From the IMG/VR virus record IMGVR_UViG_2651869691_000008: 37,385 nt of DNA, one strand, 5' to 3'. Position numbers and translations under genes: made by a program. Positions 2,646 to 31,555 of this stretch are shown piece after piece (positions within the stretch are counted from its first letter, which is position 1; each line of letters begins with the position of its first letter). This stretch comes from a virus (Duplodnaviria > Heunggongvirae > Uroviricota > Caudoviricetes). The notes under the pieces are model-generated. The model ran no database searches. It was not told where the DNA came from and saw only the letters and a list, made by a program, of their open reading frames with translations.

Positions 2646-3755
2646 TCACTCTGTTTCTGCTATCCATTCCGGGATTTTTGCCTCAAGCTCAAGCTGCGTG
2701 GTAAAGCCGCTGTTATCGATGGTGTGCTCGGCTTTTGCAATAATCCAGTCCTGATTATCAATCTCGCTTTTAAATCCTGTTACCGTGCCATGCATTTCGG
2801 GGTAGAGTTCTGCACGACCACATGCCAGCGTGATGGAGAATGATGCGGCTCCGCGTTGTAGCTGCTGCCACTTTGCCGCCGCTGCGCGTCTTGCTGCCTG
2901 CTCGTTCTGATAAGTCTTGCGTAACACAAACACATTGCCTTCCGCGCCTTCCATATAATCACCTTCGCGGCTGCTGCTTTTCTCCTTTTTGGGTTTTGGC
3001 GGTTTGCGGTGTTTCACGCTGACTTTTTTCTTTTTCCCGTAATTAAGATCAAGCCAGTAAGCGCGTACCCCCGTATACGCTTCGCGGTCAGCAATGCGGA
3101 ACTGATGGCGATCGCCACTGCTGCGCGTGATGGCGAACGATGGCAACGGCTGGCCCTGTGCGTTCACGCCACCGCCTGGCATAATGAATAACAGATTACC
3201 GCTTTTTACCGTGGTGATTGCGCCCAGCATTTCCGCCATGCGCGTAAGGAAGGACATGTCGCTTTCTTCGGTCTGGTCGGCGTGGTCGATTTCGATATCC
3301 ATCAGCATTTCGCTGATTTGCGGTTTCAGACCATACCGATGAGCGATGGCGGATACCACACGCTCAACGGTCACATCATGCCAGGACACCTCACGTTTAA
3401 CGTTAAATTCATCCCGAAAATCTGCGCTTCTGGCTGAAACAGTCAGCCTGTCCGGCGGTCCTTCGTGAGCGATTTCATCAACAATGTAAGTGCCTTTTTC
3501 TGTCAGCGGTTCTCCTTTCCAGCCAATGAGAACCGTCAGGCGCGCGCCCCGTGGCGGTAGCTGCAACTGACCATCCGCATCATCCAGCGTGATGGTGAGC
3601 TGGTCCGCGTCAAATCCCCGGTTGTCGGTCAGTGACAGGCTCATCAGGCGCTCTGCCACGCCTGACAGCGTTTTACCCTCCGCGAGAATATCAAAATCCG
3701 GCATTTTCACGGGGTCTGTGCCCTGACTGAGCAATTGCATGGTGGTATCGGTCAT
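2646..3755 (-). CDS. P2 gpD-like tail protein (late control gene D)
   Basis: start refined to ATG at 3755 (GGAGGG RBS 5 nt upstream) within the 2646-3887 ORF; by P2 synteny the gene preceding ogr is D; family call from position and size. Confidence 0.8.
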   Translation of the reverse strand: MTDTTMQLLSQGTDPVKMPDFDILAEGKTLSGVAERLMSLSLTDNRGFDADQLTITLDDADGQLQLPPRGARLTVLIGWKGEPLTEKGTYIVDEIAHEGPPDRLTVSARSADFRDEFNVKREVSWHDVTVERVVSAIAHRYGLKPQISEMLMDIEIDHADQTEESDMSFLTRMAEMLGAITTVKSGNLLFIMPGGGVNAQGQPLPSFAITRSSGDRHQFRIADREAYTGVRAYWLDLNYGKKKKVSVKHRKPPKPKKEKSSSREGDYMEGAEGNVFVLRKTYQNEQAARRAAAAKWQQLQRGAASFSITLACGRAELYPEMHGTVTGFKSEIDNQDWIIAKAEHTIDNSGFTTQLELEAKIPEWIAETE

Positions 3756-3912
3756 CTGTTCCCTCCCTGTGCGGCATGGTCGCATGTGCGTGCGGAGGGG
3801 GTTACTGCTTTTTGTTGTCGCCGGATCGGGAGAACGGCACAGGGGTGAGATTACGCGCGTGGTGGGTGATGATTGTTGCCGAATCATTTAACGGATACAA
3901 GGGGCTAAAGCT

Positions 3913-5097
3913 ATGAGTGAAACTCGTTTTCATGGTGCCCGTGTTACGGAAAATACCGACCTGGTAACAGCGATTAACGATGTTGATTCCAGCGTTATCG
4001 GTATCGTGGCAACGGCGGATGATGCGGACGCGAAGCTGTTCCCGCTGAACAAGCCCACACTGCTGACCCGCGTCAATGACGTGCTGGGAAAATGCGGGAC
4101 AACGGGGACGCTTTATCGTGCGCTTAAGGCCATCGCAGACCAGGTGAGCACAAAGGTGATCGTCGTTCGCGTGGCTGAACACAAAGAAGAAGACGGAAAG
4201 ACGCAGGATCAACTGGTTATCGGTGGTTCTGAATCTGACGGCAGCTATACGGGGATGTATGCGCTGCTTGTTGCAGAGCAGGATGAAAGCATCGGATACC
4301 GTCCGCGTATTCTGGCCGCGCCGGAGCTGGACACGGAGGCGGTGACAAAATCCCTGTGCGTGATTGCGGGTAAACTGCGCGCGTTTGTGTATGCCTCATG
4401 TCACGGCTGTAACACGATGGCTGAGGTGATTACCTACCGCCAGAAATTCAACGAACGTGAGGTGATGCTCTTATGGCCGGACTTCATCGCCTACAACCCG
4501 AAAAGTGGCAAAAACGAAACGTTCCCCGCGCCTGCCTATGCGTGCGGCCTTCGTGCGTACATTGACCATGAGCAGGGATGGCACAAATCACTGTCCAACG
4601 TTCCGGTTAAAAATGTGCTGGGGATGTCCAGGCATGTGTTCTGGTCGTTGCAGGCCGAAGACAGCGATGCCAACAGCCTCAACAACAAAGAAATCACGAC
4701 CATTATTCGTCGCAACGGGTTCCGCTTCTGGGGCAACCGCACACCGGAAACGAACGCCTACATCTTTGAGGTGTATACCCGAACCGCACAGGTGCTGGCT
4801 GATTCAATTGCGGAAGCGCAGTTTGAAACCATCGACAGTCCACTGACGCCTGCGAACGTGAAAGATGTTATCAGTGCCATCAGGGCAAAACTGGATTCAC
4901 TGGTTACTGCCGGGAAACTGATTGGGGCGTCGTGCTGGTATGACGTGGTGGATAACGGCACCACGAATTTACGTCAGGGGCGTGTGCGTATTCGCTACAA
5001 ATATACGCCTGTTCCCCCGCTGGAAGACATGGAGCTTTACCAGTCGTTTACTGATGAATTCTTTGGTCCCGCATTTGCGGTGCTGGGAGGTGTCTGA
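3913..5097 (+). CDS. contractile tail sheath protein (P2 gpFI-like)
   Basis: 394-aa ORF; sheath-like size and position ahead of the tube gene; opposite strand to D/ogr. Confidence 0.85.
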   Translation: MSETRFHGARVTENTDLVTAINDVDSSVIGIVATADDADAKLFPLNKPTLLTRVNDVLGKCGTTGTLYRALKAIADQVSTKVIVVRVAEHKEEDGKTQDQLVIGGSESDGSYTGMYALLVAEQDESIGYRPRILAAPELDTEAVTKSLCVIAGKLRAFVYASCHGCNTMAEVITYRQKFNEREVMLLWPDFIAYNPKSGKNETFPAPAYACGLRAYIDHEQGWHKSLSNVPVKNVLGMSRHVFWSLQAEDSDANSLNNKEITTIIRRNGFRFWGNRTPETNAYIFEVYTRTAQVLADSIAEAQFETIDSPLTPANVKDVISAIRAKLDSLVTAGKLIGASCWYDVVDNGTTNLRQGRVRIRYKYTPVPPLEDMELYQSFTDEFFGPAFAVLGGV

Positions 5098-5609
5098 TGG
5101 CTGTACCAAAACATCTTCGCTTTTTTACGCTGTTTGTGGATGGTGAAAACGAAGTGGGTAAGGTGACGTCCGTCACCCTGCCTAAACTGACGCGCAAAAC
5201 CGACAGCTATCGTGGTGGTGGCATGATGGGGGCGGTAAGTATTGATCTCGGTCTGGACGACTCCGCGCTTGATGCGAGTTTTGTTATGGGGGGAGCTGTT
5301 CGTGCGCTGTTCCTTAAATATGGCGGCACGATTGACGGCACGCTGCTGCGTTTTGCGGGTGAATACTACACCGATGCAGAAAGCGATCTGTATGAAATCG
5401 AGATGCGCGGACGTGTGACGGAAATTGATATGGGGGAAGCCAAACAGGGCGAAGCCACATCACACACTTACGCCATTAAAAACACCTACTACAAGCTGAG
5501 TGTTAACGATCGCCCGTTGTGGGAGATTGACCTGCTGAACTTCATTTACCGGAAGGACGGCAAGGACATTGTGCCCGATCGCATCCGTTCCGCGCTTGGG
5601 CTTGGCTGA
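5097..5609 (+). CDS. tail tube protein (P2 gpFII-like)
   Basis: 170-aa ORF; start overlaps the sheath stop (TGATG). Confidence 0.85.
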   Translation: MAVPKHLRFFTLFVDGENEVGKVTSVTLPKLTRKTDSYRGGGMMGAVSIDLGLDDSALDASFVMGGAVRALFLKYGGTIDGTLLRFAGEYYTDAESDLYEIEMRGRVTEIDMGEAKQGEATSHTYAIKNTYYKLSVNDRPLWEIDLLNFIYRKDGKDIVPDRIRSALGLG

Positions 5610-5663
5610 TAAGTAATATGCAGGCGGCGCAGTGCGTCGCCTCTGACTGAAAGGAGTTTCCTG

Positions 5664-6029
5664 ATGAAAGAGACGAAAAACATCGATACCGAAAACACGG
5701 TCGTTGCTGACACTGTGAAAGAAACCAGTGAGCGTGGCGTAAAACTTACCCAACCAATTGAGCGAGGCGGCGAAAAAATCACGTATGTGGAGATCACCGG
5801 AGCTATTGAGCAGGCTGGATCTCTGCGAGATTTGTCGCTGTCTGATGTGCTGAATCTGAAAGCGGAATCCATGTTTACGCTGCTGTCACGCGTGACATCA
5901 CCGCGACTGGATGAAGTGACGATCAAAAAAATGGCATCCCGTGACTTTATTCAGTTATGTGCGGTTGCCGTAAATTTTTTGAGCGGTGCGGACTCTGGCG
6001 GGAAGAACGAACAGGCGACGGAAGCCTGA
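5664..6029 (+). CDS. tail assembly chaperone (P2 gpE-like)
   Basis: 121-aa acidic ORF immediately upstream of the tape-measure gene. Confidence 0.75.
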   Translation: MKETKNIDTENTVVADTVKETSERGVKLTQPIERGGEKITYVEITGAIEQAGSLRDLSLSDVLNLKAESMFTLLSRVTSPRLDEVTIKKMASRDFIQLCAVAVNFLSGADSGGKNEQATEA

Positions 6030-6193
6030 TCACGATTGTGTGCTTTGAGCACATAGAAGACTTTGTGGCAGATATTGCCGTTATTTTTAACTGGTCGCCC
6101 GCCGAAATCTTCATGATGACGCCCGGCGAAGTGGTTAGCTGGCGTGAGCGGGCGGCACTTCGCAGCGGGAGTGCAGACAATGAAGACTCTTGA
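5664..6193 (+). CDS. gpE+E' fusion chaperone made by programmed -1 frameshift at the T-run 5975-5981
   Basis: slippery TTTTTTG at 5975-5981 in the E frame; the -1 frame continues ...FFERCGLWREERTGDGSLITIVCFEHIEDFVADIAVIFNWSP... to a stop at 6193, overlapping the T start. Confidence 0.6.
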
Positions 6194-8987
6194 TATCCGG
6201 GTCGCTTTCAGCGCCGTTGACAGGCTGACCCGGCCTGCCGAAAACGCCCGCCGCCTGATGGGGCAGTTTGGTGACTCCATCCAGCGAACGCAGGGGGCGA
6301 TCAAAAATCTCGAGCGTCAGGCGCGTTCATTTGAGCGCGCCCGCGACGCTGTCAGTAAAGCGGATGCGGGTATCGTGAAAGCACGACGCCAGCTTAACGC
6401 CCTTAATCAGTTACAACGCACGGGTACAGTGCTCAGCGAAAAACAACAAAAGCTGATGCAGCAGTTAAGCAGCCGGCTTGAACGCCTGAATGAATCGCGC
6501 ACACGGGAAATTCAGAAAATGCGGGAACTTGGCGGAGAGCTGAAACGCCACGGCATTTCCCTGACAGGCAGCGATAACACCATCCAGCAGGCCATCAGAC
6601 GCACCGAACAGTACAACAACCAGCTTGAACGCGAACGGCAGGCGCTTGCGCGTGTAACGCGGGCGCGTGAGCGGTATTCGCGCGCGCAGGAAACCGCGGG
6701 AAAACTGAAAACAGGTGGTGCGCTGGCAATTGGTGCTGCAGCGGCTGGCGGCTATGCTGCCGGGCGTTTTTTGCAGCCTGCGATCGGGTTCGGCAAAGAG
6801 ATGTCCCGCGTTCAGGCACTGACGCGAATCGACAAAAACAGCCCGCAGTTTAAGGCGCTGCGTGAGCAGGCGTTAAAACTTGGTTCTGAAACACAGTTTA
6901 CTGCGAGTGATGCCGCCAGTGGGCAGAGCTTTCTGGCAATGGCTGGTTTTACTCCGCAGGCCATTCAGGCCGCATTGCCCGGTGTTCTTAATATGGCGCT
7001 GGCAGGTGGCGTCGAACTCGGCGAGACGGCTGATATAGGCTCCAATATCCTCACACAGTTCAACCTGACAGCCGATCAAATGGACCGGGTTGGCGATACG
7101 CTGACAGCAGCATTCACCCGGACCAATACTGATTTACGCGCGCTGGGCGAAACCATGAAGTATACCGGTCCGGTTGCCGCAAAACTTGGTATCAGTCTTG
7201 AAGAAGCGGCGGCCATGGCCGGGATGCTTGCCAATAATGGTCTTCGCGGAAGCGATGCTGGTACGGCCATGCGCGCAAGTCTGTCCCGCCTTGCATCACC
7301 GCCAAAAGCTGCGGCTGATGCACTGAAAGAGCAGGGGGTGTCAGTTGCTGACGCCAGAGGCAAAATGCGCCCGATGGAGGATGTGCTGCTTGATCTCTAT
7401 AAGGCGACACAAAAATACGGACAGGTGGACCAGGTCTCCTTCTTCAAGGACATCGCCGGAGAAGAGGCGTTCGTTGGTTTGCAGACGCTTGTTGCGGCGG
7501 CTGGTTCAGGAGAACTGCAAAAACTGACCAGAGAATTGCAGGGGGCAAGGGGAGAGGCCGATCGCGTTGCAAAAGTAATGGCCGATAATCTTGATGGAGA
7601 CCTGAAAAATCTCGACAGCGCATGGGAAGGTCTTCGTATTCGCATCAGTGATCTGGTTGACGGTCCGCTGCGTTCTGTCACGCAGTGGCTCACGCGGGTG
7701 CTTGAAAAAATCACCTCGCTGGCGCAGGCCCATCCGGTACTGACGCGCCAGCTACTGATAGCAAGCGGTGCGTTGCTGGCAATGACTGCAACGATTGGCT
7801 CGTTGTCGCTGGTTATTGGGGTGCTTTACGGGAAGCTGGCCACCTTGCGTCTTGGTTTCGACATTCTTACCCGGTCAATGAATGTCATCAGGGTGTTGCC
7901 TGCGCTGTGGGGAATGGTGACGGGTTCTGTTTCTTTGCTGGGAGGAGCTATCGGGGCGCTGTTCAGTCCGGTTAGTCTTATCGTGGCTGCGCTTGCCGGC
8001 GCTGCCGTTCTTATCTGGAAATACTGGGATCCCATCAGGGCATTTTTTGCCGGGGTGTTCAGCGGGATTATGGAAAGGCTGAACCCGTTGCGTGAAACCT
8101 TTGAACGGTTTGGCCCTGTTTTTGACGCAATCGGAAGCGGGATCAGCCAGGTGTTTAACTGGTTTAAATCGCTGCTGTCACCGATGGAGTCCAGCAAGGA
8201 AACGCTGGATAAATGTACCAGTGCTGGCGAGATATTCGGTAACGTTCTTGGTGGCGCGTTACAGCTTGTTCTGACGCCTGCAAAAATGTTGCTGGATACG
8301 CTGGCGTGGATACTTGAAAAACTCGGTGTTCTTCCGGATGAAGCGGAAAGGGCGAGAAAGAAAATCGAAGACGCACAGCGTGCGGCCATTCTTCAGGACA
8401 AGGTTGCCTTACTTCAAGGGGACCTGGCGAAAATCAATCCGCCGAAGCCTGTGGAAAATGGCAATGGCACCGGAGGTGATAAACCCAAAGACAACAAACC
8501 GCTCACAGACAGCAATACCGGGACGCTACGCAGACTCAGCAAAATTGCTGATAACACAGGTAAGCTGGTTGATGAGACGAAAAAACGCATTGGCCCCGGC
8601 GATATTGTCTTTAAGAACCTGCCCCGCGCACTTGCTGTTCGTGGGGAGTGGCAGGAGCGGAAGATTGCGCAGGTCAGTAAGCCTGCCCCCGCAATTAATA
8701 TCACACCTGTGGTTCCGGCTCCGCTGCCTCCGGCGCTGGTCCCTGTTGTTGCGGCCAGCTCCCGCCCGGTGGCAGAGGCCATACGATCGCCAGTGGCATC
8801 AGTTCCTGCAACTTCCCGTAACCGGGAGACTGTTGCCTCCGGATTTGGCGGTGAAATTCATGTTCATCTGCATAACGTTGTTACGCAGAATCCCCGCGAA
8901 CTGGCGAAACTGGTCGGTGAAATGGTCAGGGCAGAGATGGAACGGCGCGCCCGTGCCGGGCGTGGCAGTTTTTACGATAAAGATTGA
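6180..8987 (+). CDS. tail tape measure protein (P2 gpT-like)
   Basis: long ORF, coiled-coil-rich N-terminus, Ala/Gly-rich hydrophobic middle; ATG at 6180 preferred (GGGAG RBS) over GTG at 6144. Confidence 0.85.
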   Translation: MKTLDIRVAFSAVDRLTRPAENARRLMGQFGDSIQRTQGAIKNLERQARSFERARDAVSKADAGIVKARRQLNALNQLQRTGTVLSEKQQKLMQQLSSRLERLNESRTREIQKMRELGGELKRHGISLTGSDNTIQQAIRRTEQYNNQLERERQALARVTRARERYSRAQETAGKLKTGGALAIGAAAAGGYAAGRFLQPAIGFGKEMSRVQALTRIDKNSPQFKALREQALKLGSETQFTASDAASGQSFLAMAGFTPQAIQAALPGVLNMALAGGVELGETADIGSNILTQFNLTADQMDRVGDTLTAAFTRTNTDLRALGETMKYTGPVAAKLGISLEEAAAMAGMLANNGLRGSDAGTAMRASLSRLASPPKAAADALKEQGVSVADARGKMRPMEDVLLDLYKATQKYGQVDQVSFFKDIAGEEAFVGLQTLVAAAGSGELQKLTRELQGARGEADRVAKVMADNLDGDLKNLDSAWEGLRIRISDLVDGPLRSVTQWLTRVLEKITSLAQAHPVLTRQLLIASGALLAMTATIGSLSLVIGVLYGKLATLRLGFDILTRSMNVIRVLPALWGMVTGSVSLLGGAIGALFSPVSLIVAALAGAAVLIWKYWDPIRAFFAGVFSGIMERLNPLRETFERFGPVFDAIGSGISQVFNWFKSLLSPMESSKETLDKCTSAGEIFGNVLGGALQLVLTPAKMLLDTLAWILEKLGVLPDEAERARKKIEDAQRAAILQDKVALLQGDLAKINPPKPVENGNGTGGDKPKDNKPLTDSNTGTLRRLSKIADNTGKLVDETKKRIGPGDIVFKNLPRALAVRGEWQERKIAQVSKPAPAINITPVVPAPLPPALVPVVAASSRPVAEAIRSPVASVPATSRNRETVASGFGGEIHVHLHNVVTQNPRELAKLVGEMVRAEMERRARAGRGSFYDKD

Positions 8988-8993
8988 GGAGTC

Positions 8994-9488
8994 ATGGCCA
9001 TGATGATGATCTATGGCATGTTTGTTTTTGAGCTGCGCACGTTGCCGCATCAGCAGTTACAGCAAAACAAAAGCTGGCGGCATGTGAAAAATGAACGCGT
9101 TAACCGTTCAGCAAGCTGGCAGTATATCGGGGCAGGCGATGATCGCATCGTTCTTTCTGGTGTGCTTTATCCTGAAATTACAGGTGGCGAAGTGTCGCTT
9201 TCGTTGCTGACCTCGCAGGCATATACAGGACGCCCCTGGCCTCTGATTGATGGTGTCGGGCAGATTTACGGCATGTATGTCCTGACCGGAACGAATACGA
9301 CCCGCTCCGAGTTTGATCGCTACGGTAAGGCGAAAAAGATAGAATTTTCACTGACTCTTGAACGCTGTGATGAGGATTTGCGGGAGCGCCTGCAATCCTC
9401 ATCGTTCAGTGATATGCTGTCCGGCTTCAAAGATAAGGTCACATCATCCCTTAACAGCGCGGCCAGCTCCGTTAAAGGGCTGTTTTGA
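8994..9488 (+). CDS. tail protein (P2 gpU-like)
   Basis: 164-aa ORF directly after the tape measure; GAGGAG RBS. Confidence 0.75.
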   Translation: MAMMMIYGMFVFELRTLPHQQLQQNKSWRHVKNERVNRSASWQYIGAGDDRIVLSGVLYPEITGGEVSLSLLTSQAYTGRPWPLIDGVGQIYGMYVLTGTNTTRSEFDRYGKAKKIEFSLTLERCDEDLRERLQSSSFSDMLSGFKDKVTSSLNSAASSVKGLF

Positions 9489-9492
9489 TTAA

Positions 9493-9525
9493 CGCAAAAC
9501 CGCTAATGGTCAGATTAGCGGTTTT
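9493..9525. terminator. bidirectional hairpin between convergent U and invertase genes
   Basis: AAAACCGCTAAT-GGTCAG-ATTAGCGGTTTT, 10-bp stem flanked by A/T runs. Confidence 0.5.
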
Positions 9526-10114
9526 CATTTTCCTGAGTCTGCCTGGTTGTTTCTTCAGCCTGTATATCGCCTACAGGGTGATAACGATAAATCGTCGATA
9601 TGCCGATGTCGTAAATGATCGCCAGTTGTTTCCTGTCATGACCGTTTTTAATCAGCCTCGCTATTTGCTCGTGTTGTTCTTTTGTCAACTTCGGGCGACG
9701 TCCGCCAATGCGTCCTTGTGCGCGTGCTGCTGCCAGCCCGGCCAGTGTACGCTCTACAATTAATTCACGTTCCATTTCGGCTAAAGCCCCCATGACGTGA
9801 AAAAAGAAACGCCCCATGGGTGTTGATGTGTCAATGCTGTCCGTCAGACTACGGAAATTAACACCTTTTTCCCGCAATTCCTCAATAAGCGTGATCAGGT
9901 GTTTCATACTTCTGCCCAGTCTGTCCAGCTTCCAGACAACCAGCGTATCTCCTTCTGATAGCGTTCTGAGCAGTTTTTTCAATCCCGGTCTGGCTGATTT
10001 CGTTCCGCTGATTTTATCTTCAAAAATCAGTTCACATCCTGCGCAGTTCAGTGCATTGCGTTGTAAATCCGTGTTCTGGTCATTTGTTGACACACGAATA
10101 TAGCCAATTTGCAT
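9515..10114 (-). CDS. serine DNA invertase (Hin/Gin/Cin/Pin family)
   Basis: ATG at 10114 (AAGAGGA RBS) gives MQIGYIRVSTNDQNTDLQRNAL...LVVWKLDRLGRSMKHLI...GRIGGRRPKLT, resolvase catalytic domain plus C-terminal HTH; the longer 9515-10324 ORF is an N-terminal artefact. Confidence 0.9.
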   Translation of the reverse strand: MQIGYIRVSTNDQNTDLQRNALNCAGCELIFEDKISGTKSARPGLKKLLRTLSEGDTLVVWKLDRLGRSMKHLITLIEELREKGVNFRSLTDSIDTSTPMGRFFFHVMGALAEMERELIVERTLAGLAAARAQGRIGGRRPKLTKEQHEQIARLIKNGHDRKQLAIIYDIGISTIYRYHPVGDIQAEETTRQTQENENR

Positions 10115-10168
10115 AAAAAACATCCTCTTTGTTTCGTGAAAAATACATAGTTGGTATAGGTAGGGATA

Positions 10169-10194
10169 AAAACGAAAACGTTGGTTTGGGGGAA
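10169..10194 (+). other. hix/gix-like 26-bp recombination site at start of cassette 1
   Basis: AAAACGAAAACG-TT-GGTTTGGGGGAA; shares the AAAC(C/G)-NN-GGTTT core with sites at 10683, 11200 and (inverted) 12761. Confidence 0.6.
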
Positions 10195-10689
10195 GGTTCT
10201 GCGCTGCCTGTTGGTGTGCCCGTTCCATGGCCCTCAGCCACACCACCAACGGGCTGGCTGAAATGCAATGGTGCAGCATTTTCTTCTGAAATGTATCCCG
10301 GACTGGCAAAAGCCTACCCCGCAAATAAATTACCGGATTTACGGGGAGAATTTATTCGCGGCTGGGATGATGGGCGCGGGGTGGATGCTGGCCGCGCTTT
10401 GCTTAATTGGCAGCCACACACAATTTTGGATCATGCACACTATATGGAATTATGGACCGGGAACGGACTTGCCGTGGAAAGTGCACGGGAAGGATTAAAC
10501 CCTGGAATACTGGCTACATACGGGGACGGGGGAATAGTTAAAACAGACGAACCCGGTTTAAGGGTGCCTTCCTCACTACGAGCCATTAGCTCTCGTAATG
10601 TAAAACGGTTTGGTGAAATTAGTGGAAATGTAGGTACAGAAACTCGCCCTCGCAACGTTGCATTCAATTACATCGTAAGAGCCGCATGA
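10183..10689 (+). CDS. silent (promoterless, startless) tail-fibre C-terminal tip cassette 1
   Basis: in-frame GLGEGSALPVGVPVPWPSATPPTGWLKCNGAAFSSEMYP...RGWDDGR identical to the H junction region, divergent middle, conserved C-terminus ETRPRNVAFNYIVRAA; no in-frame ATG with RBS. Confidence 0.7.
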   Translation, partial: GLGEGSALPVGVPVPWPSATPPTGWLKCNGAAFSSEMYPGLAKAYPANKLPDLRGEFIRGWDDGRGVDAGRALLNWQPHTILDHAHYMELWTGNGLAVESAREGLNPGILATYGDGGIVKTDEPGLRVPSSLRAISSRNVKRFGEISGNVGTETRPRNVAFNYIVRAA

Positions 10690-10708
10690 AAACGTTGGTT
10701 TGGGGGAA
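10683..10708 (+). other. hix/gix-like recombination site at start of cassette 2
   Basis: CGCATGAAAACG-TT-GGTTTGGGGGAA; overlaps the cassette-1 stop codon. Confidence 0.6.
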
Positions 10709-11206
10709 GGTTCTGCGCTGCCTGTTGGTGTGCCCGTTCCGTGGCCCTCAGCAACACCACCAACGGGCTGGCTGAAATGTAACGGCGCAGCATTTTCTTC
10801 TGAAATGTATCCCGGACTGGCAAAGGCTTACCCCACCAATAAATTACCGGATTTACGGGGTGAATTTATTCGTGGCTGGGATGATGGACGTAGTGCGGAT
10901 GCGGGGAGAACAATATTATCCGCTCAAGGTGATGCCATACGTAATATCTATGGTGAGTTCAAGACTGTAAACACTGAAAATTATTCAATATGGGAATCAG
11001 TAGGCTCGTTTAAGGGGGCAGTGGTGCCTTTAAATTCCTCAACAAACAATAGTTATTTCTCCTTAGTCAGAAGTATGGTGACAGAAAGGACAGACGGCGC
11101 TGTTTACCCAAAAGTGATTGGCCTTGATGCTTCAAAAATTGTTCCAACTGCAAACGAAAACCGCCCACGCAACATTGCGTTTAATTACATCGTAAGGGCA
11201 GCATGA
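10697..11206 (+). CDS. silent tail-fibre C-terminal tip cassette 2
   Basis: same conserved N-linker and C-terminal RPRNIAFNYIVRAA, distinct central region. Confidence 0.7.
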   Translation, partial: GLGEGSALPVGVPVPWPSATPPTGWLKCNGAAFSSEMYPGLAKAYPTNKLPDLRGEFIRGWDDGRSADAGRTILSAQGDAIRNIYGEFKTVNTENYSIWESVGSFKGAVVPLNSSTNNSYFSLVRSMVTERTDGAVYPKVIGLDASKIVPTANENRPRNIAFNYIVRAA

Positions 11207-11225
11207 AAACGTTGGTTTGGGGGAA
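11200..11225 (+). other. hix/gix-like recombination site at start of cassette 3
   Basis: AGCATGAAAACG-TT-GGTTTGGGGGAA. Confidence 0.6.
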
Positions 11226-11693
11226 GGCTCTGCACTGCCCGTTGGTGTGCCTGTTCCATGGCCCTCAGCCACACCACCAACGGGCTGGCTGAAATGTAAC
11301 GGTGCAGCATTTTCTTCTGAAATGTATCCCGGACTGGCAAAGGCTTACCCCACAAATAAATTACCGGATTTACGCGGAGAATTTATCCGTGGCTGGGATG
11401 ATGGGCGAGGAATTGATGCGGCACGCGCTTTATTGAGCATTCAAAACGGGATGTTGGAAAAACACCGCCATATTGTTGTAGCTAACGATGGATATGACAC
11501 AAAAGATGAATGGGAGTTGGCTACGATTTTCAAAAAAACATATACACAAGGCAGGGGACTTGATGCCACAAATACAGGAGGGAGTTTGATTCCATCACCA
11601 ACGCTTCATTCACGAGGAAGTATTGGTAACACAGGTGGTAGTGAAACCCGCCCCCGCAATATTGCATTTAACTATATCGTGAGGGCGGCTTAG
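11214..11693 (+). CDS. silent tail-fibre C-terminal tip cassette 3
   Basis: same conserved N-linker and C-terminal RPRNIAFNYIVRAA, distinct central region. Confidence 0.7.
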   Translation, partial: GLGEGSALPVGVPVPWPSATPPTGWLKCNGAAFSSEMYPGLAKAYPTNKLPDLRGEFIRGWDDGRGIDAARALLSIQNGMLEKHRHIVVANDGYDTKDEWELATIFKKTYTQGRGLDATNTGGSLIPSPTLHSRGSIGNTGGSETRPRNIAFNYIVRAA

Positions 11694-11699
11694 TTATAT

Positions 11700-12311
11700 T
11701 CAACTGGCTGATGCCAGTGGTATTTCCGGCAAGTTGATATCTGGTGCCATGTTTATATCCATTGCGTTCAGCGCGTCTATATAATCCAGCACGGCATTAA
11801 GCCGGGTGGTTTCTGCCTGCGTCAACTTCCGCCCGGCCCGCAACTTCAACTGAATCAGACTTATGGAATCCATTGCCGCATCAGCCAGTGACTGGCGCTT
11901 GGTTTCTGCCGCTTCTACTGCGGCACGATGTTGTACCTCAGTATCTGTCACCCATTTTTCACCATCCCATTTATCGTATGGTGTTAACGGGGCGATAGTG
12001 GTTGTATTTTTCGGGTAGTCACCCAGCGCCGTGATTTCTTCGGTGTTTCCCGTGTCAGTGCTATAGACGGTTTCACCACGATGGTCTGGCGCATACTCCC
12101 ATGAATTTAAATCCTCCGAACGGCGAATAGCATAGCCAGATTTATGTGCGCCTGGGGCATCTAAACAGGAATTAGCCGGAATACCAACACCCACAGCAAG
12201 ATATTCAGTTGATTCGGAAATATATTCCCGTGTCTCACCATCATAGTTATAAACGACGATGTTTCCTGCCTGTACGGCAATAAGGTCATCATTTAATATC
12301 GCGTTATTCAT
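11700..12311 (-). CDS. tail fibre assembly protein (P2 gpG / Tfa-like chaperone)
   Basis: 203-aa ORF immediately after H (start overlaps H stop, TAATG); Tfa-like position and size. Confidence 0.8.
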   Translation of the reverse strand: MNNAILNDDLIAVQAGNIVVYNYDGETREYISESTEYLAVGVGIPANSCLDAPGAHKSGYAIRRSEDLNSWEYAPDHRGETVYSTDTGNTEEITALGDYPKNTTTIAPLTPYDKWDGEKWVTDTEVQHRAAVEAAETKRQSLADAAMDSISLIQLKLRAGRKLTQAETTRLNAVLDYIDALNAMDINMAPDINLPEIPLASAS

Positions 12312-13906
12312 TATGCGGTTCTCACAATATAATTGAAGGCAATATTGCGTGGGCGGGCTTCATTCCCCCCTGAGGATTCCGTTCTGTATTGACTGGTAAA
12401 TCTACCGTTAATTGCACCTTGCCGGACGGCGTTATCTGTCGACAACAGACTATCCCCTCCTTTGTCATTTGGCACCAGTACCGTGTTATCCCACGCGTCC
12501 CATGACCGAATATTATGATAATGACTTCCTGTTAACCACCCCTGCATGCTTAAGATGCCCCTTCCGGCATCCACCCCGCGCCCATCATCCCAGCCACGGA
12601 TAAATTCACCGCGTAAGTCTGGTAATTTATTGGTGGGGTAAGCCATTGCCAGTCTGGGATACATTTCAGAAGAAAATGCTGCGCCGTTACATTTCAGCCA
12701 GCCCGTTGGTGGTGTTGCTGAGGGCCACGGAACGGGCACACCAACGGGCAGTGCAGAACCTTCTCCTAAACCAAGGTAATCAAGAACGCCCTGAGTGCTG
12801 GTTTTACCAAGAATGGCACGTCCAACACTTGTCAACGCGGTTAACGCGGCACGATCTGCCCCTGTAAAATATGGGAGTTTATCTGCTGATGTAGCAAGCT
12901 TCGCCAGCGCCGTCAGGATGGCATCCTTCGGTTGCTTACCCGCAAGCGCGTTAGTCATGGTGGTCGCAAAATTCGGGTCATTGCCCAGCGCCGCAGCCAG
13001 TTCGTTCAGCGTGTTCAGTGCATCAGGTGACGAATCTACAAGTGCGGCAATCGCGGCCATAACGAAAGCTGTGCTTGCGATCTGGGTATTATTAGTCCCC
13101 TGTGGCGCTGTTGGTGTTGTTGGCGTTCCGGTCAGTGCCGGGCTGTTTAATGGTGCTTTCTTGTTCGTTTCATCCATTACCACCTTAACAGCTTTTGGTG
13201 TCGCTGCCAGCGTTTCAGACGTGCTGTTCGTGGCGCTACTGAGCTGAACAATCCCTTTTTGTGTAGTGGTGGCGTTCTGGGCGGTATATTTCCCGTTAGC
13301 CAGGTCATATGCAGCCTTAACCGCTTTCGGTGTTGCGGCCAGTGTTTCTGATTCACTGTTAATTGCACTGCTTAACTGAGTAAAACCTTTTACGGTCAGC
13401 GAGGCGTCCGGGTGACGTCGTGATTGTTCGTGCTCTGATATTTTATCATCCACATATTTGCGGGTTGCCAGAACCACAGACGGGTCGATTTTCAGCGTGA
13501 TGGCTTCGGTGTTCGTGACAACCAGAATCATGCGGATAGTCTGGGTGCGTCCACTGCCTTCCTGCAACTGCGGTTTGTACGTTTCCGGGCAGTTTGCCAC
13601 CGCAATGAGTACACCTTCATCATCATAAAGACCAATCTCACGGATCCAGAATCCTCCCTCGTTTTCAGGGATGATTTGCTCCGCAATAATCTGGCTCTGA
13701 TTGTTAGGGTCAACACTCAGAAGATTCAGCGGTGCAATGCGTTTCTGGTTAATCAGTTTTGTTTGTGCAGGGTCTGGTGTTGGTAACACACCATTTGCAT
13801 CACCAACGGCCATTTGCGTCAGATTCAGCTTACTGCCGAGCATCGTCGCGTTAGCCAGTCGTGCCGCGCCCTGATTAGTCAGAATGGCGTAGTATTTCAC
13901 TGTCAT
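12311..13906 (-). CDS. tail fibre protein (P2 gpH-like), currently fused to variable tip 0
   Basis: N-terminal two-thirds P2 H-like (AEHEQSRRHPDASLT, repeated QLSSA..S.SETLAATPKAVK, ALGNDPNFATTMTNALAGKQPKD); after ...DYLGL the sequence matches the cassette linker, then a unique tip ending EARPRNIAFNYIVRTA. Confidence 0.9.
   Translation of the reverse strand: MTVKYYAILTNQGAARLANATMLGSKLNLTQMAVGDANGVLPTPDPAQTKLINQKRIAPLNLLSVDPNNQSQIIAEQIIPENEGGFWIREIGLYDDEGVLIAVANCPETYKPQLQEGSGRTQTIRMILVVTNTEAITLKIDPSVVLATRKYVDDKISEHEQSRRHPDASLTVKGFTQLSSAINSESETLAATPKAVKAAYDLANGKYTAQNATTTQKGIVQLSSATNSTSETLAATPKAVKVVMDETNKKAPLNSPALTGTPTTPTAPQGTNNTQIASTAFVMAAIAALVDSSPDALNTLNELAAALGNDPNFATTMTNALAGKQPKDAILTALAKLATSADKLPYFTGADRAALTALTSVGRAILGKTSTQGVLDYLGLGEGSALPVGVPVPWPSATPPTGWLKCNGAAFSSEMYPRLAMAYPTNKLPDLRGEFIRGWDDGRGVDAGRGILSMQGWLTGSHYHNIRSWDAWDNTVLVPNDKGGDSLLSTDNAVRQGAINGRFTSQYRTESSGGNEARPRNIAFNYIVRTA
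12761..12786 (-). other. hix/gix-like recombination site inside H at the constant/variable junction
   Basis: minus strand reads TTCTTGATTACC-TT-GGTTTAGGAGAA, inverted relative to the three cassette sites. Confidence 0.6.
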
Positions 13907-14511
13907 GCGTTTACTCTCAGATTATCAATTAAATGAATGGCCGGGGCAGGGAAATAGTCCCCTTCGACAATAATGGACTCCGGGGTGTAGGGATAAACCG
14001 TCAGGGCATCGCCGTGATAGCATCCCGTACCAACGAAAATCTTTCCGTTCACACTCAGGCTGATCGCCAGCCCCGTCAGATGGCGACTTACTGGTTTTGC
14101 ATCCGCAATAAGGCGCTCAAGTTCCTGATACATTTCATTGGTGATGCCCTGATCAAGTACTCCGACAACAATGCGAAATGTTCCCGGCTCCTCGTTGAGT
14201 TGCCACCACTCCTTTACTTCAATCAGGTAACCGAGAGGCTCCACGGCTCTTCGCAGTGCGCTGATGGTCCCTTTGTGTCGGTGTATCAGCCATGCATCAC
14301 GAATCACCTGTCGCTTTGTCTCTTCCGGCCAGTTGCGATCCCAGCGGTCAACGGAAAACGCCCAGGCGAGATAAGGCAGCAGATGCACCGGGCAGGTGTC
14401 CGGCGACCACAGCGTGTTGAGGTCTACCGGAATGTCTGTAATGCGTGTTCCGACGGCTTCGGCACAACGCATGAAATTGCTGGCTGATGGTGGTAACAAC
14501 GAATTACTCAT
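13903..14511 (-). CDS. baseplate/tail protein (P2 gpI-like)
   Basis: position between J and H; start refined to ATG at 14511, just after the J stop. Confidence 0.75.
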   Translation of the reverse strand: MSNSLLPPSASNFMRCAEAVGTRITDIPVDLNTLWSPDTCPVHLLPYLAWAFSVDRWDRNWPEETKRQVIRDAWLIHRHKGTISALRRAVEPLGYLIEVKEWWQLNEEPGTFRIVVGVLDQGITNEMYQELERLIADAKPVSRHLTGLAISLSVNGKIFVGTGCYHGDALTVYPYTPESIIVEGDYFPAPAIHLIDNLRVNA

Positions 14512-27252: not shown

Positions 27253-28212
27253 TTACTCCTTGTCCATTGCGTACAGCCCATTAACCAGAGCAAACTGTGG
27301 CACCCCGTCCGCGATGAAAGTCGCATTAACTCCGCAGGCTTCGCGGATAGCGGGTGCCACAATCTCCGCCCCGCCACCGACAACCATCACCCGCCCGTAA
27401 CCCGAAAAACCCGCCAGCGCGCGGATCACGCGTTGTTTCAGTGTTTCTTCCTTTTCACGAATAACCGCCATCAGGCTGGCGTAATGCGCGTCATTGTGGA
27501 TGTGCTGGCGCAGCCAGGCTTCATCATGGCGATGTTCGATAATGGTATTGGCGATGTGGTGACTGGTGCGCATACCGTTAGTGGCCATCACCGACAGTAC
27601 GGCATCGGCCATCAGAGAAACGCCTACGTGTGGGTCGCAAAACACCTGGCTGATACCTGCCAGTTGCCCCTGAACCTTTGCCACATCCAGCGTGGTTCCG
27701 CCCAAATCCACAATCAGCAGGGATTCAAACGGACTCATGTCAGCCAGTGCCTTAAAGCCAGCCGGAATGGATTCAGGCATAACCCGCACGTTACGGATAG
27801 TGAATGCTTCGCCGTTCTGGTACTCCACCGGGCGCATAACGTTCGCTTTTTTGCGGTTGATGTTGGGCATGTCCGGCTGTGCGTTTGTGTCGAAATATTC
27901 GCTCAGTGGCAGGGTGACAACCACATCCACTTCCTGTGGTGTGATGCCTGATTTGACCAGCGCGTGATGAATGGCAATGACATTCACATCGCTGTACTGG
28001 TATTGCGTGTCGGTCGTCTGGACAAAGCGATCGCTGACCGGATCAAAACCATAGCGCACGCCATCAAGCATGTAGTTCGCGGGCTGCGTGCCACCGAACG
28101 GCGCAGACCATTCCGACTTGAAGCTGTTCGGGCTGATGGCGTTGCGGCGTTCGCCGTTCTCAGTCCATGCCAGCTTGATGTTGGTGGAGCCGTCATCGAT
28201 ACAAATTTTCAT
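27253..28212 (-). CDS. ParM/StbA-family actin-like ATPase
   Basis: MKICIDDGSTNIKLAW...ISPNSF...YSDVNVIAIHHAL...MPESIPAG...LIVDLGGTTLDV...VMVVGGGAEI; strong resemblance to plasmid R1 ParM throughout. Confidence 0.85.
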   Translation of the reverse strand: MKICIDDGSTNIKLAWTENGERRNAISPNSFKSEWSAPFGGTQPANYMLDGVRYGFDPVSDRFVQTTDTQYQYSDVNVIAIHHALVKSGITPQEVDVVVTLPLSEYFDTNAQPDMPNINRKKANVMRPVEYQNGEAFTIRNVRVMPESIPAGFKALADMSPFESLLIVDLGGTTLDVAKVQGQLAGISQVFCDPHVGVSLMADAVLSVMATNGMRTSHHIANTIIEHRHDEAWLRQHIHNDAHYASLMAVIREKEETLKQRVIRALAGFSGYGRVMVVGGGAEIVAPAIREACGVNATFIADGVPQFALVNGLYAMDKE

Positions 28213-28246: not shown

Positions 28247-28339
28247 ACGGGATTCTGAAATCCCGTTTTTGCCTGTTTTATGCGCGCTTCATATATCGCG
28301 GCGCGTTTTTTGCTCATTTACGGGATTTGTGAATCCCGT
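28247..28339. repeat. two ~39-bp direct repeats each containing an 8-bp-arm palindrome (ACGGGATT-N4-AATCCCGT), 73 bp apart
   Basis: palindromes at 28247-28266 and 28320-28339; one in the A/parM intergenic region, one inside the last codons of A; candidate operator or centromere-like sites. Confidence 0.6.
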
Positions 28340-31111
28340 TTCTGTCTGTTTTTTGTTTCCACTGGTCAGGCCACCCCGCAGCAGGTCTGCTTTGCGGTGG
28401 GCGCGTTCAGTGGTTTCACTGATTCTCTGTGCGTGCTCTGCGTCGCGGATGGCGCGCAGCATGTCAGAAAGCACGGTAACGGGTGTTTTCATGGTGTTCT
28501 GGTCTTGCTGAAGTGTGGATGCCAGGCGTGCGGCGGCTTCGGGGTCTGATGCCCCCAGCTGTTCCAGATAGCTGGCGACCGGGTTATGGCGGATCTCCGT
28601 GCTGCTTACGCCGTGGTTACGGCTCAGGCGCTGCCAGAGCTGCGTGATCCGGCTGTCCGGTCGGGTATCCGGTTTGCGTACAATTTCAAATCCCTGCGGT
28701 GCAATGATGCTGCCGTCAACGTACAGACTGCCGCCCCGTAACAGGTGCTGCATCTGCTGTTCACCGATATGCAGGCCGAGAGATTCAGCAGACTCCCGCC
28801 ATTCTTTAGCGAGTAATTCGTGGTTATCAGGCAAAGGCCGCTGCTGTTTGCGGCTCTGTGTCCAGCTCTGCATTTCATCACGGCTGTTTTTTGCCTGTTT
28901 GTCACGAAGCGAACGCATCAGCGCCCGGCGTTCGTGCCGTTTCAGTGAGCGCATCCATTCGTTCACTTCAACGCCGTCAGGGAGCTGCGGCCACGGTGCT
29001 GGCCGTTCTTCCGGCTGTTCTGTCCCGTTGTTGTCTGTTTCCTGTACACGGGGACAGTTATTGCCACGAGTCCAAGGGGCGGCAGGGCCGCCCTGAAGGT
29101 CAAAACCATTTTCGCGGGCGCTGTCTTCCGCTTCCGGTTTGCGTCTTACCAGCTTCCAGTTATCCGGATGCGTGCACACACGGGAGGATTCCCCGATGAG
29201 TGGTGACCAGATCCCGTAAATCTGTACGCTCTGTTCGCCGTAATCGTTCAGCTCATCGGCGAGGTCGTAGGCGGTGCGAATCAGGTAGTCTTTGCGTGGA
29301 ACAAGTACGCCGCCCTGTTTCTCAATGTAGGTGGCAAAACATCCGGCATCAGCGGCAGCAAGAACCGCATCCATTGCGTCATCCTTCAGCCGTTGCGGGC
29401 CTTCCGGGTTGCGTGCCATCTGGCTGGCAAGGCGACGCAGTTCACGCCACACCTGACGGGAGGGGATGCCAAAGAACTGGAACTGGCGGACCCGGTGAAG
29501 GCGCGCCCAGCCAATGGCGCGTTCCACGCTCTCGGTCATTGATTTTCCGGTTTCGTGGTCAACGCGTGGTTTGCCTGTTTTCGGGTCGATGCCATCCACG
29601 GCGCGGCTGTCCAGGTTTTTTCCGATGTAGGTGGCGATGTAGCTGGTTGGCGTGCCTTTTGAGCCGTCGACATACTCCGCCTTAAAGCGCGGAGTAATAT
29701 CATCGCCCAGCTCGTGACGATCTTCCTGAATGGCAATATCGCGGGTGTGGGACACAATGGTGTCGATTTCTTCCGGATGAGCAAAGACCATCATATGCCA
29801 GTGCACGGTGCCGTCATGGTGAGGCTCCACCGTGCGGATGCCATACCAGCGCAGGCCGTCGCGGTTCAGTTTCTTGCGGACCGCCGCAAAAAACGTGTTA
29901 ACCAGGTAATCGCTGGAGTCGCGCATGGTGGCCCCGTTCCATTTGGGATTCGGATGACCGTTCTCTGTTGTAGCGTGGTATTTTGACGGGCAGGTGACAG
30001 TCAGAAACACCGCTTTGTCGCCACGGGCTTCGGCCAGAAGTTCCAGCCCCTTCATGGTGGCCATCATTTCTGCCTTACGGTGAACCGGGTTACTTACTCC
30101 CGCGTAATACACTGTCTTGAGATCAATCGTGAACCCGTCTTCGTTTTCCAGCATGAAACTTTTCAGGAAATCGCGTGTTTTCTCGCGCTGTGCGCGAAAC
30201 TCGCTTAACGCGTCCTGGCTCAGATAGGGCGATGTTTTTCTGGAAACCAGACAGGCGGCGCGGAGTTGTTCTTCTCTCCACTCGCAACGTAACAGCCACA
30301 GTTTGCGTTTCCACCATTCCGCACAGGTCAGGCGAAGGATTGCGCCCGGCAGCAGCTCCGTGTCCGGTTCGTTCCTCCGGTCTTTGTCTGTTGTCAGTGC
30401 GTCATAATGTGGAGGCATGGCGTGCAGGTGTAACGCCATGCGGGCCAGCATCTGATACGCCTTCAGCGTTACATCCATGGTCAGTTCGCCATCGGTCGCG
30501 CCAAAGCCATCGCAGAGTTTTTCGAAGGTGCTGCTGAACATCGCCGCCGTCATGGTGGCCAGCGTCTGTATCTGGTGTTTGTTGAGCTGCGGCAGGTAAA
30601 GCAAATCGTCCAGGCGTTCGCGTCCGGCAAGGGAGCGATAACCCTGTGTCAGCCAGCGGTGATCGGTGCGCTCCAGACGTTCGAATATTTTGCGCAGGTT
30701 TCCGCGCGCGTAGCGTTCAGCCTGCCAGCTCTTTTTGCCTTTCTGACGATCGGCTTCCTGTTTTTTGCGCAGGAAGGAGAGGTGGCGAATAAGCGGATCG
30801 CGCAGATAGGACGGCAGCAGGCGCAGCGAGGCCATGGCTTCATCCACCGCACCGCGTGCCTGTTTTCTGGCGTCTCCTGCCAGTGTGATGGTTTTGTCCT
30901 GTTTTTCCTGTGCGTCCAGGCTTTTATTAATCAGGTTGCCCAGCGGCGTTGCGGAGAACGCCGCATCAGCCATTTCCTGGCGGCGCTCGTTCTCTACCCG
31001 GTAGGCATCCAGCCAGGAGGAAAGCGCGGATTCAGGAGCGGGGATCCCCGTTCCTTCACGCCCCACTGCGTGGCGCGGTTGTTGCCAGTCCCTGATGTAC
31101 TCTGCCGTCAT
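28289..31111 (-). CDS. rolling-circle replication initiation protein (P2 gpA-like)
   Basis: 940 aa; DGTVHWHMMVF and YIATYIGKN motifs of the phiX174 A / P2 A family; longer than I expect for P2 A. Confidence 0.9.
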   Translation of the reverse strand: MTAEYIRDWQQPRHAVGREGTGIPAPESALSSWLDAYRVENERRQEMADAAFSATPLGNLINKSLDAQEKQDKTITLAGDARKQARGAVDEAMASLRLLPSYLRDPLIRHLSFLRKKQEADRQKGKKSWQAERYARGNLRKIFERLERTDHRWLTQGYRSLAGRERLDDLLYLPQLNKHQIQTLATMTAAMFSSTFEKLCDGFGATDGELTMDVTLKAYQMLARMALHLHAMPPHYDALTTDKDRRNEPDTELLPGAILRLTCAEWWKRKLWLLRCEWREEQLRAACLVSRKTSPYLSQDALSEFRAQREKTRDFLKSFMLENEDGFTIDLKTVYYAGVSNPVHRKAEMMATMKGLELLAEARGDKAVFLTVTCPSKYHATTENGHPNPKWNGATMRDSSDYLVNTFFAAVRKKLNRDGLRWYGIRTVEPHHDGTVHWHMMVFAHPEEIDTIVSHTRDIAIQEDRHELGDDITPRFKAEYVDGSKGTPTSYIATYIGKNLDSRAVDGIDPKTGKPRVDHETGKSMTESVERAIGWARLHRVRQFQFFGIPSRQVWRELRRLASQMARNPEGPQRLKDDAMDAVLAAADAGCFATYIEKQGGVLVPRKDYLIRTAYDLADELNDYGEQSVQIYGIWSPLIGESSRVCTHPDNWKLVRRKPEAEDSARENGFDLQGGPAAPWTRGNNCPRVQETDNNGTEQPEERPAPWPQLPDGVEVNEWMRSLKRHERRALMRSLRDKQAKNSRDEMQSWTQSRKQQRPLPDNHELLAKEWRESAESLGLHIGEQQMQHLLRGGSLYVDGSIIAPQGFEIVRKPDTRPDSRITQLWQRLSRNHGVSSTEIRHNPVASYLEQLGASDPEAAARLASTLQQDQNTMKTPVTVLSDMLRAIRDAEHAQRISETTERAHRKADLLRGGLTSGNKKQTETGFTNPVNEQKTRRDI

Positions 31112-31117
31112 AGTGAT

Positions 31118-31483
31118 TTACTTCGTCATGCCATTCAGGGTGTCGCGGCAGGCTGTAGCCAGCCGCTGAATTTCCAGCACGGTGTCTTCTGTGTCGGCAT
31201 GGCGATGTGTGATGCGGATGCTGTCGGCAATCACATCGACGATTGCAGAGGATGGGCGCTGGTAAATGCCAATAACGGACGGGGTGCCACCTTCAATGCG
31301 GTAAAGCCTGTAATTTCCCTCGTGGCTGTCAATCATGTAGCGACCATCAATAACAATCTTTCCGTCAGCGAGCTGCGGTACAGGCAGGGATTTCTGGTAC
31401 ATGTCATAACGATCACGCACGCGAGCGGCAAGATCACGTTCTGTGTTGAGCAGGTATTCAAGAAAGTCGTTGGCGAGAATCAT
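31118..31483 (-). CDS. hypothetical early-operon protein
   Basis: 121-aa ORF immediately upstream of A in the same orientation. Confidence 0.5.
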   Translation of the reverse strand: MILANDFLEYLLNTERDLAARVRDRYDMYQKSLPVPQLADGKIVIDGRYMIDSHEGNYRLYRIEGGTPSVIGIYQRPSSAIVDVIADSIRITHRHADTEDTVLEIQRLATACRDTLNGMTK

Positions 31484-31555
31484 TGCGGCAATCCTCTTGT
31501 TACAGATGTGCGAAGGCCTCCCGCCGCAAGGTGCAGGAAAGGCCCGGAACAGGAA

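Follow-up and report, generated by a model that had tools for sequence, protein, structure and literature searches.

A probable Gin-family multiple-inversion tail-fibre switch with four tips and a single assembly gene in a P88-like Escherichia coli prophage

How could one prophage provide its progeny with more than one receptor-binding tip? This question is raised by a tail-fibre locus at positions 9515-13906 of the viral record IMGVR_UViG_2651869691_000008 (Duplodnaviria; Heunggongvirae; Uroviricota; Caudoviricetes), a stretch of 37,385 nucleotides (nt) whose full length is referred to here as the window. The locus consists of a tail-fibre gene (H), three silent tip cassettes on the opposite strand, a tail-fibre assembly (chaperone) gene (tfa) between them, and a gene for a serine DNA invertase. 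Our answer, which we hold with considerable confidence, is that this locus is a Gin-family multiple-inversion ("shufflon-like", p15B Min-type) tail-fibre switch in a P88-like E. coli prophage. The mechanism itself is not new, as it has already been demonstrated in a near-identical element of E. coli E2348/69. Among the evidence for this reading, the invertase is intact and differs by one residue or none from enzymes at loci in different isomeric states, and four gix-like sites share a common TT core in the right orientation, with in-frame products that are found naturally and an inversion that can be traced in E2348/69. The anatomy of the region described in an initial annotation of this DNA stood up well, except that tfa had gone unmentioned there. 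The features of the locus, in order, are as follows.

9515-10114, minus strand: Gin/Hin (Din)-family serine DNA invertase of 199 amino acids (aa); Pfam Resolvase 1.5e-51 and HTH_7 1.4e-12
10169-10194, plus strand: crossover site S1, AAAACGAAAACG-TT-GGTTTGGGGGAA, the outermost site, 55 base pairs (bp) upstream of the invertase start codon
10183-10689, plus strand: silent tip cassette 1, type TE, with collar, variable head, conserved C-terminus and stop; Pfam Collar 2.6e-13
10683-10708, plus strand: crossover site S2, CGCATGAAAACG-TT-GGTTTGGGGGAA, overlapping the TGA stop of cassette 1
10697-11206, plus strand: silent tip cassette 2, type TG; Pfam Collar 2.2e-14
11200-11225, plus strand: crossover site S3, AGCATGAAAACG-TT-GGTTTGGGGGAA, overlapping the stop codon of cassette 2
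11214-11693, plus strand: silent tip cassette 3, type TA, convergent with tfa and with no half-site after it; Pfam Collar 2.3e-14
11700-12311, minus strand: tail-fibre assembly (chaperone) gene tfa, whose start overlaps the H stop (TAATG); Pfam Caudo_TAP 9.6e-31
12311-12772, minus strand: expressed, exchangeable tip of H, type TB, aa ~379-531, with a Tail Collar domain
12761-12786, minus strand: crossover site S0, TTCTTGATTACC-TT-GGTTTAGGAGAA, within H, its TT core lying in codon 378
12787-13906, minus strand: constant part of H, aa 1-377; Pfam Phage_tail_fib N-terminal domain 1.5e-62 and Phage_fiber_2 repeats

The 17-mer ACSTTGGTTTRGGRGAA has exactly four occurrences in the window, against 0.01 expected by chance. 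All four crossover sites are 26 bp long and built of imperfect 12-2-12 half-sites, as is typical of Din-family sites; S0 is inverted relative to S1-S3, and each site, when read in its own orientation, has the same TT core. The coordinates originally assigned to these hix/gix-type sites (10169, 10683 and 11200, plus an inverted one in H) were reproduced. When compared with the gix site of phage Mu, which reads TTATCCAAAACC-TC-GGTTTACAGGAA in NC_000929, the inner half-sites, GGTTT(A/G)GG(A/G)GAA, closely resemble the Mu half-site GGTTTACAGGAA.

The enzyme expected to act on such sites lies next to cassette 1. Residues 1-185 of the invertase align to Mu Gin (PDB 3uj3/4m6f) with an E value of ~1e-90 and with YIRVSTNDQ conserved, the catalytic Ser9 being located within the motif MQIGYIRVSTNDQ; together with the Resolvase and HTH_7 matches, this alignment confirms the serine invertase that had been proposed at this position, and the protein has the N-terminal catalytic domain with a Ser9/10 nucleophile and the C-terminal helix-turn-helix (HTH) domain of the Din family. 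An identical protein (annotated as WP_001165544.1) is encoded at eight of the related loci that we mapped (L001, L002, L004, L007-L009, L011 and L012), and the E2348/69 enzyme is one residue apart (E197K), in the C-terminal tail past the HTH domain.

Din-family inversion depends on an enhancer that is bound by Fis; classically, it lies within the gene of the invertase, towards the 5' end, and comprises two Fis sites spaced ~48 bp. Using a crude home-made Fis-motif score and an ungapped alignment to Mu gin, we looked for such sites in the invertase gene and found a single convincing one that is conserved with gin:

10007-10021, minus strand: candidate Fis-binding 15-mer GAAGATAAAATCAGC at gene nt 94-108, where Mu gin has GAAGATAAATTAAGC

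A second candidate is ambiguous and scores poorly, its centre being at nt 138 or ~150, i.e. 37 or ~49 bp away. Judging from this resemblance to gin, the element at 10007-10021 may belong to a recombinational enhancer contained in this gene.

The three silent cassettes are arranged in tandem on the plus strand, lack start codons and adjoin the invertase gene, forming a direct-repeat family with a spacing of 514 and 517 nt. Cassettes 1 and 2 end inside the outer half of the next site, with their stop codons within S2 and S3, so that each is a self-contained module made of an inner half-site, a tip, a stop and an outer half-site. The repeat stretch following each site encodes a Tail Collar domain, and inverted repeats of 214-240 nt (88-91% complementary) pair the 5' part of each cassette with positions 12543-12782 of H. 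Alignment of the four tips reveals that the first ~68 aa are nearly invariant, the next ~70-95 aa divergent and the last ~16 aa conserved (ExRPRNxAFNYIVRxA). The divergent centre and the conserved C-terminus were thus described correctly at first, but not a junction of 60 identical residues, as the shared part covers ~68 aa at 89-92% DNA identity. The collar region of H matches the T4 gp37 tip, T4 gp12 and the "short tail fiber" structure 9cuy, and the fibre tips are presumably homotrimers, by analogy with these T4 fibre proteins.

Soon after the collar, an HxH motif is found in three of the four tips, namely HYH in TB, HAH in TE and HRH in TA (12480-12500, 10430-10445 and 11470-11480, respectively, in the variable regions), and none is present in TG; these motifs recall the metal-binding HxH motifs of T4 gp12 and gp37. 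Inverted repeats of 52-61 nt at the 3' ends of the cassettes were also considered as a second set of sites around tfa alone, and turned out to be merely conserved C-terminal coding sequence. Beyond the P2 family, P1-like phage-plasmids (~90-100-kb E. coli plasmids and phage vB_EcoM-673R5) carry counterparts of the tip cassettes, and a related invertase, at ~88-92% nt identity, implying that tip modules circulate between P2-family prophages and P1-family phage-plasmids.

If the sites are used as proposed, strand exchange should yield intact fibre genes. We built the three products in silico by exchange at the TT core of S0 with S1, S2 and S3. All three fusions keep H in frame (…GVLDYLGLGEGSALP…) and terminate at the native stop of the cassette, giving predicted H proteins of 546 aa (cassette 1), 547 aa (cassette 2) and 537 aa (cassette 3). 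Each of them exists in nature: H::cassette 1 is contiguous in E. coli EC43 (100% coverage, 96.8% identity, one piece), H::cassette 2 in E. coli GPEC1031 (100% coverage, 94.3% identity, one piece), and H::cassette 3 in 266917_2 (98.2%) and STEC1590/1589 (97.4%). These natural fusions carry the same H constant part and are annotated as full-length coding sequences of exactly the predicted lengths. The idea of three promoterless cassettes that can be joined in frame to H is therefore well supported, and the locus has the hallmarks of a multiple-inversion system, namely more than two sites, one constant part and cassettes that are in frame after inversion.

The proposed mechanism can be outlined as follows. 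The invertase would bring S0 together with S1, S2 or S3, all of which face the other way, and exchange strands at the TT core, presumably with the help of host Fis on an enhancer in the 5' portion of the invertase gene. This would invert the DNA between the two sites, and the constant 377-aa part of H would be joined in frame to another tip of ~155-170 aa, each tip comprising a conserved collar, a putative receptor-binding head that is variable, and a conserved C-terminus. As the inner sites would flip together with the segment, successive inversions would reshuffle the order of the cassettes, and the virions released by a population of lysogens could have as many as four adsorption specificities. 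On rare occasions, cassettes might also be lost or gained when sites in direct repeat recombine. Simulation of all inversions between oppositely oriented sites yielded 12 isomers reachable from the arrangement in the window, in which TB is expressed in two, TE in four, TG in four and TA in two. Hence the four alternative tips of the initial annotation remain, but the locus has 12 reachable isomers and not just four states; the "four host ranges" proposed there also presume that tfa is expressed, or is dispensable, in isomers in which it is flipped.

Direct traces of recombination at these sites were found in close relatives. In the E2348/69 assembly CP059840.2 the locus is arranged as inv / TC> / TA> / <tfa / <TB::H, and in EPEC1 (LT903847), a derivative of E2348/69, as inv / TB> / tfa> / <TA / <TC::H. 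Inverting CP059840.2 core to core, from the outermost site (the homologue of S1) to the H site, gives LT903847 with 0 mismatches over 6,840 bp, and flanking differences limit the exchange to at most 37 bp including the site, despite the ~200 nt of homology that were available. A reciprocal inversion is therefore evident for this lineage in the E2348/69 pair, not for the window sequence individually. Two overlapping inversions, at NC_011601.1 1891695-1893703 and 1892127-1893703, had been reported from sequencing of E2348/69, and four coexisting variants were validated by PCR in single-colony cultures (Goldberg et al. 2014, Genome Med; PMC4272514). These coordinates overlap our own genome match (H131), which identifies the two as the same locus.

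Changes in cassette number can also be mapped to the sites. When the segment from S1 to S3 (core to core) is removed from the window, the locus of AR_0013 (L002) is obtained, with 0 mismatches at the junction and 3 mismatches in ~5 kb. AR_0013 carries a near-identical prophage (99.8-100% identity in the mapped genes) without cassettes 1 and 2, and the junction falls within an identical stretch of 23 nt that has the site core at its centre. Thus, recombination at the sites alters the number of cassettes too, through loss between direct repeats or through the opposite event, an insertion. Gin-type invertases normally disfavour a reaction of this kind. The corresponding comparison of the window minus S2-S3 with KOr024 was not informative, as the background divergence was too great.

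To see the range of such arrangements, 13 loci of this prophage lineage were mapped, whose invertases are 99.5-100% identical and whose H constant parts share 98.4-99.8% nt identity. They carry two to six tips, which represent at least eight types (TA-TH) and are ordered and oriented in many ways, cassette TA being found in both orientations. All 13 fit the inversion model, in that the sites next to the invertase share one direction and those on the H side have the opposite one, and the left half-sites remain with their own flank in each of them. The exact cassette set of the window was absent from the complete E. coli genomes in our collection, the best match having 94% coverage and lacking TG. 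In a species-wide survey of invertases, most relatives of at least 70% identity proved to be two-site segments or contigs broken at a site; matches of ~60% identity in unrelated taxa resemble a spread transposon or plasmid recombinase and were excluded.

Two further observations concern the state of such loci in sequence collections. Many draft contigs of Enterobacterales end 10-130 nt from a gix-like site beside a related invertase gene (L016, L022, L025, L029, L034, L039, L041, L042 and L046), and assemblies seem to break at such repeated or heterogeneous segments. At positions 3427-5415 of the SCU-101 locus (L004), H is annotated with 662 aa and runs through TA and on into TB, the cassette that follows; both the stop and the site between these cassettes are altered there (CATCACCAACGC-TT-GGTTT...), which suggests that the TA/TB junction has decayed.

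Several points weigh against an active multiple-inversion switch in this prophage. The window is a single sequence, so that inversion in its own lysogen is something we infer rather than observe directly. The enhancer is not established, as one Fis-like site is conserved with gin and the second is ambiguous. The outer half-sites are degenerate relative to the gix/hix consensus (ATTACC or AAAACG, not AAAACC). That the four tips would bind different receptors is likewise a presumption. Finally, no promoter was found for a flipped tfa, and some isomers may lack functional fibres.

Among alternative explanations, the array might be a frozen relic that no longer inverts here, its enzyme or sites being dead or its enhancer missing. 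The single arrangement in the window, the unconfirmed enhancer and the frameshifted or partial cassettes in some relatives are what one would expect of such a relic; yet the open reading frame (ORF) of the invertase is intact and encodes the very enzyme found at loci in several isomeric states, a protein one tail residue away from that of E2348/69, whose locus has coexisting isomers, and the four sites and four tip ORFs are also intact, with every fusion in frame. We therefore regard a relic as improbable. Even less credit is due to RecA-dependent homologous recombination between the ~215-240-nt inverted collar repeats as the agent of tip switching, with the sites and the invertase incidental or inactive: the repeat arms do hold perfect runs of 29, 90 and 32 nt, long enough for RecA, and such switching is possible, as had been noted at the outset, but the natural crossovers that can be mapped lie within 23-37 bp around the site, both in the E2348/69 exchange and in the deletion that separates the window from AR_0013, the left half-sites stay with their flanks in 13/13 loci, and in phage FR-phi, whose locked isoforms differed in infectivity, tail-fibre recombination was abolished by deletion of gin (PMC13418256).

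The locus has a single tfa gene. This sole Caudo_TAP gene of the region is located between cassette 3 and H and is contained in each segment that can be inverted; the innermost invertible unit is TA> <tfa <TB. Among the 13 loci, tfa always follows TB directly, being co-oriented with H in eight and flipped in five, and no locus was found with tfa flipped independently of TB. STEC1590 is one of the natural loci with a flipped tfa, and in arrangement it is the flipped counterpart of AR_0013. Because tfa lies inside the innermost unit, each odd number of inversions turns it antisense to the H operon, and in our simulation it faces away from H in 6 of the 12 isomers, including both that express TA. 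The C-terminus shared by the tips suggests that one chaperone serves all four of them. A search of PDB sequences with Tfa gave no match.

How, then, might a flipped tfa be transcribed? As for a dedicated promoter of tfa or the cassettes, a sigma-70 scan of positions 9400-14000 returned 6 matches versus 6.3 expected, none of them upstream of S1 or tfa. Two other promoter candidates were rejected: a P2-type TGT-N12-ACA element at 10130-10147, in the spacer between the invertase gene and S1, belongs to a pattern that is not enriched (4 versus 9 expected) and is wrongly spaced in both directions, and the late-promoter motif of the lineage (TGTTGT-N11-SAGAAC, derived from the P/O and FI upstream regions) occurs exactly only in those regions and nowhere near the switch. 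The gene order offers another route. In the window (2646-9488, compared with P88, L014, and a P2-type phage, L015), FI-FII-E-T-U on the plus strand is convergent with V-W-J-I-H on the minus strand, and gpD on the minus strand is divergent from FI; with this layout, late operons aim into the invertible region from both flanks. A hairpin is predicted at 9496-9525 (-15.6 kcal/mol, z = -2.1), and a terminator scan found no plus-strand terminator between this hairpin and the position of tfa in the flipped isomers. Read-through from the FI-U late operon to a flipped tfa is thus conceivable.

We tentatively offer two readings of this arrangement, and consider it rather unlikely, though worth stating, that the matter comes down to one or the other. 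Either tfa can be transcribed in both orientations owing to the convergent layout, or isomers with a flipped tfa make fibre-defective virions. Under the former, the FI-FII-E-T-U and V-W-J-I-H operons would reach tfa from opposite sides, transcription of a flipped tfa passing through the hairpin at 9496-9525 and the antisense invertase gene. Under the latter, if true, the switch would double as an on/off layer for infectivity. Neither was met in the accessible literature.

The setting of the locus is chromosomal. Bases 1-1,100 of the window contain pgsA followed by tRNA-Gly, tRNA-Cys and tRNA-Leu, as in the E. coli chromosome, and were matched in 5,426/5,426 complete E. coli genomes, with a top identity of 99.5%. 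A P2-family prophage occupies the window after the tRNA genes, with the following parts outside the switch.

2646-3887, minus strand: gpD
3913-9488, plus strand: sheath, tube, tape measure and gpU
beyond the switch region, minus strand: gpI, J, W, V, S, R, lysis genes, L, M, N and O
thereafter: P and Q on the plus strand, followed by gpA and the integrase
36384-37385: prophage integrase, a tyrosine recombinase, which extends past the window end

The genes are ordered as in phage P88 (Xuanwuvirus, Peduoviridae) and not as in P2 itself, and the host element is an E. coli prophage of P88-like (Peduoviridae) type that is apparently complete. The FI-U block occupies the place that it has in P2 but in the opposite orientation; P88 and all 12 E. 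coli relatives share this inverted layout, which makes it a trait of the lineage.

Other parts of the prophage carry features reminiscent of plasmids and P1-type phages. Rfam detects a C4 antisense RNA (83 bits) at 31843-31930 and isrK (62 bits) at 31966-32040, both on the minus strand and within or beside an Ash-family ORF (31480-32097), and make up an immunity-I-like module of the P1/P7 type in a P2-family prophage. A ParM/StbA-type actin-like segregation ATPase is encoded at 27253-28212 on the minus strand (Pfam StbA_N 6e-82 and ParM_N) and adjoins the replication gene gpA (28289-31111), so that cargo of a plasmid-partition type is carried within an integrated prophage. Between tRNA-Leu and the ogr/gpD end of the prophage, a non-coding stretch of ~200 nt is present in two diverged direct copies (~1181-1375 and ~2055-2400, with blocks 75-86% identical), separated by a small ORF (1427-1822); these copies may be a scar left by an element that occupied the same attachment site before.

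If active, the switch would allow one lysogen to release phage of up to four adsorption specificities and would give a common family of E. coli prophages a broader host range. Loci of this kind also have practical consequences: they cause mis-assembly or contig breaks, appear in annotations as rows of "phage tail protein" fragments, and make one strain appear different between assemblies. The main point of interest here is how one tfa serves the tips in isomers in which it faces away from the fibre operon.

Among known systems, the closest described relative is the locus of the E2348/69 P2-like prophage (PMC4272514), which belongs to the same lineage and has the same layout (U> inv< cassettes tfa H<). 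The H constant parts of the two loci share 99.1% and their tfa genes 97.7% nt identity, and TA, TB and the TB->tfa unit are common to both. However, the E2348/69 locus has one cassette fewer, with three sites, three tips (TA, TB and TC) and four isomers, whereas the window has four sites, four tips (TA, TB, TE and TG) and 12 isomers.

The classical two-site segments, Mu G/Gin, P1 C/Cin and e14 P/Pin, and that of P88 share with the window the enzyme family, the 12-2-12 site, an invertase gene beside the segment and a crossover inside the fibre gene, and P88 has in addition the same D< / FI-U> / inv< / ... / H< layout. These systems have two sites, two tips and a tfa gene for each tip (U and U' in Mu, a pair of tfa genes in P88), by which Mu and P88 escape the difficulty of a flipped tfa, whereas the window has four sites and four tips with one Caudo_TAP gene, and thus not the two sets, each of a tip with its own tfa, that define Mu G and P1 C. 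The core dinucleotide also differs, being TC in Mu and TT in the window.

A recent parallel comes from the Enterobacter prophage FR-phi, another phage in another host and likened here by description, in which three C-terminal tail-fibre isoforms are shuffled in a gin-dependent manner (Nat Microbiol 2026; PMC13418256). The isoforms were quantified by long reads in prophage and virion DNA, only one of them infected the test host, via FhuA, and related loci with up to six paralogs were described (PMC13418256); up to six tips were also seen in our E. coli loci.

The R64/IncI shufflon follows the same logic, with a constant 5' gene part (pilV) and invertible 3' cassettes that set adhesin specificity. 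It is driven by Rci, a tyrosine recombinase acting on sfx sites, whereas the recombinase adjacent to the cassettes in the window is a serine invertase and the only tyrosine recombinase found there is the integrase at 36384-37385, so that this likeness is an analogy only.

The proposed likeness to the Min multiple-inversion system of plasmid p15B, reportedly described by Iida, Sandmeier, Arber and colleagues in 1990-92 (a reference listed in PMC6906374), held up. Both systems combine a Din-family invertase and more than two sites with one constant 5' part and several 3' cassettes. The p15B system has six sites and many more isomers. As far as the two can be compared by description, not site by site, they differ in their carriers, a P1-related plasmid in one case and a chromosomal P88-like prophage in the other.

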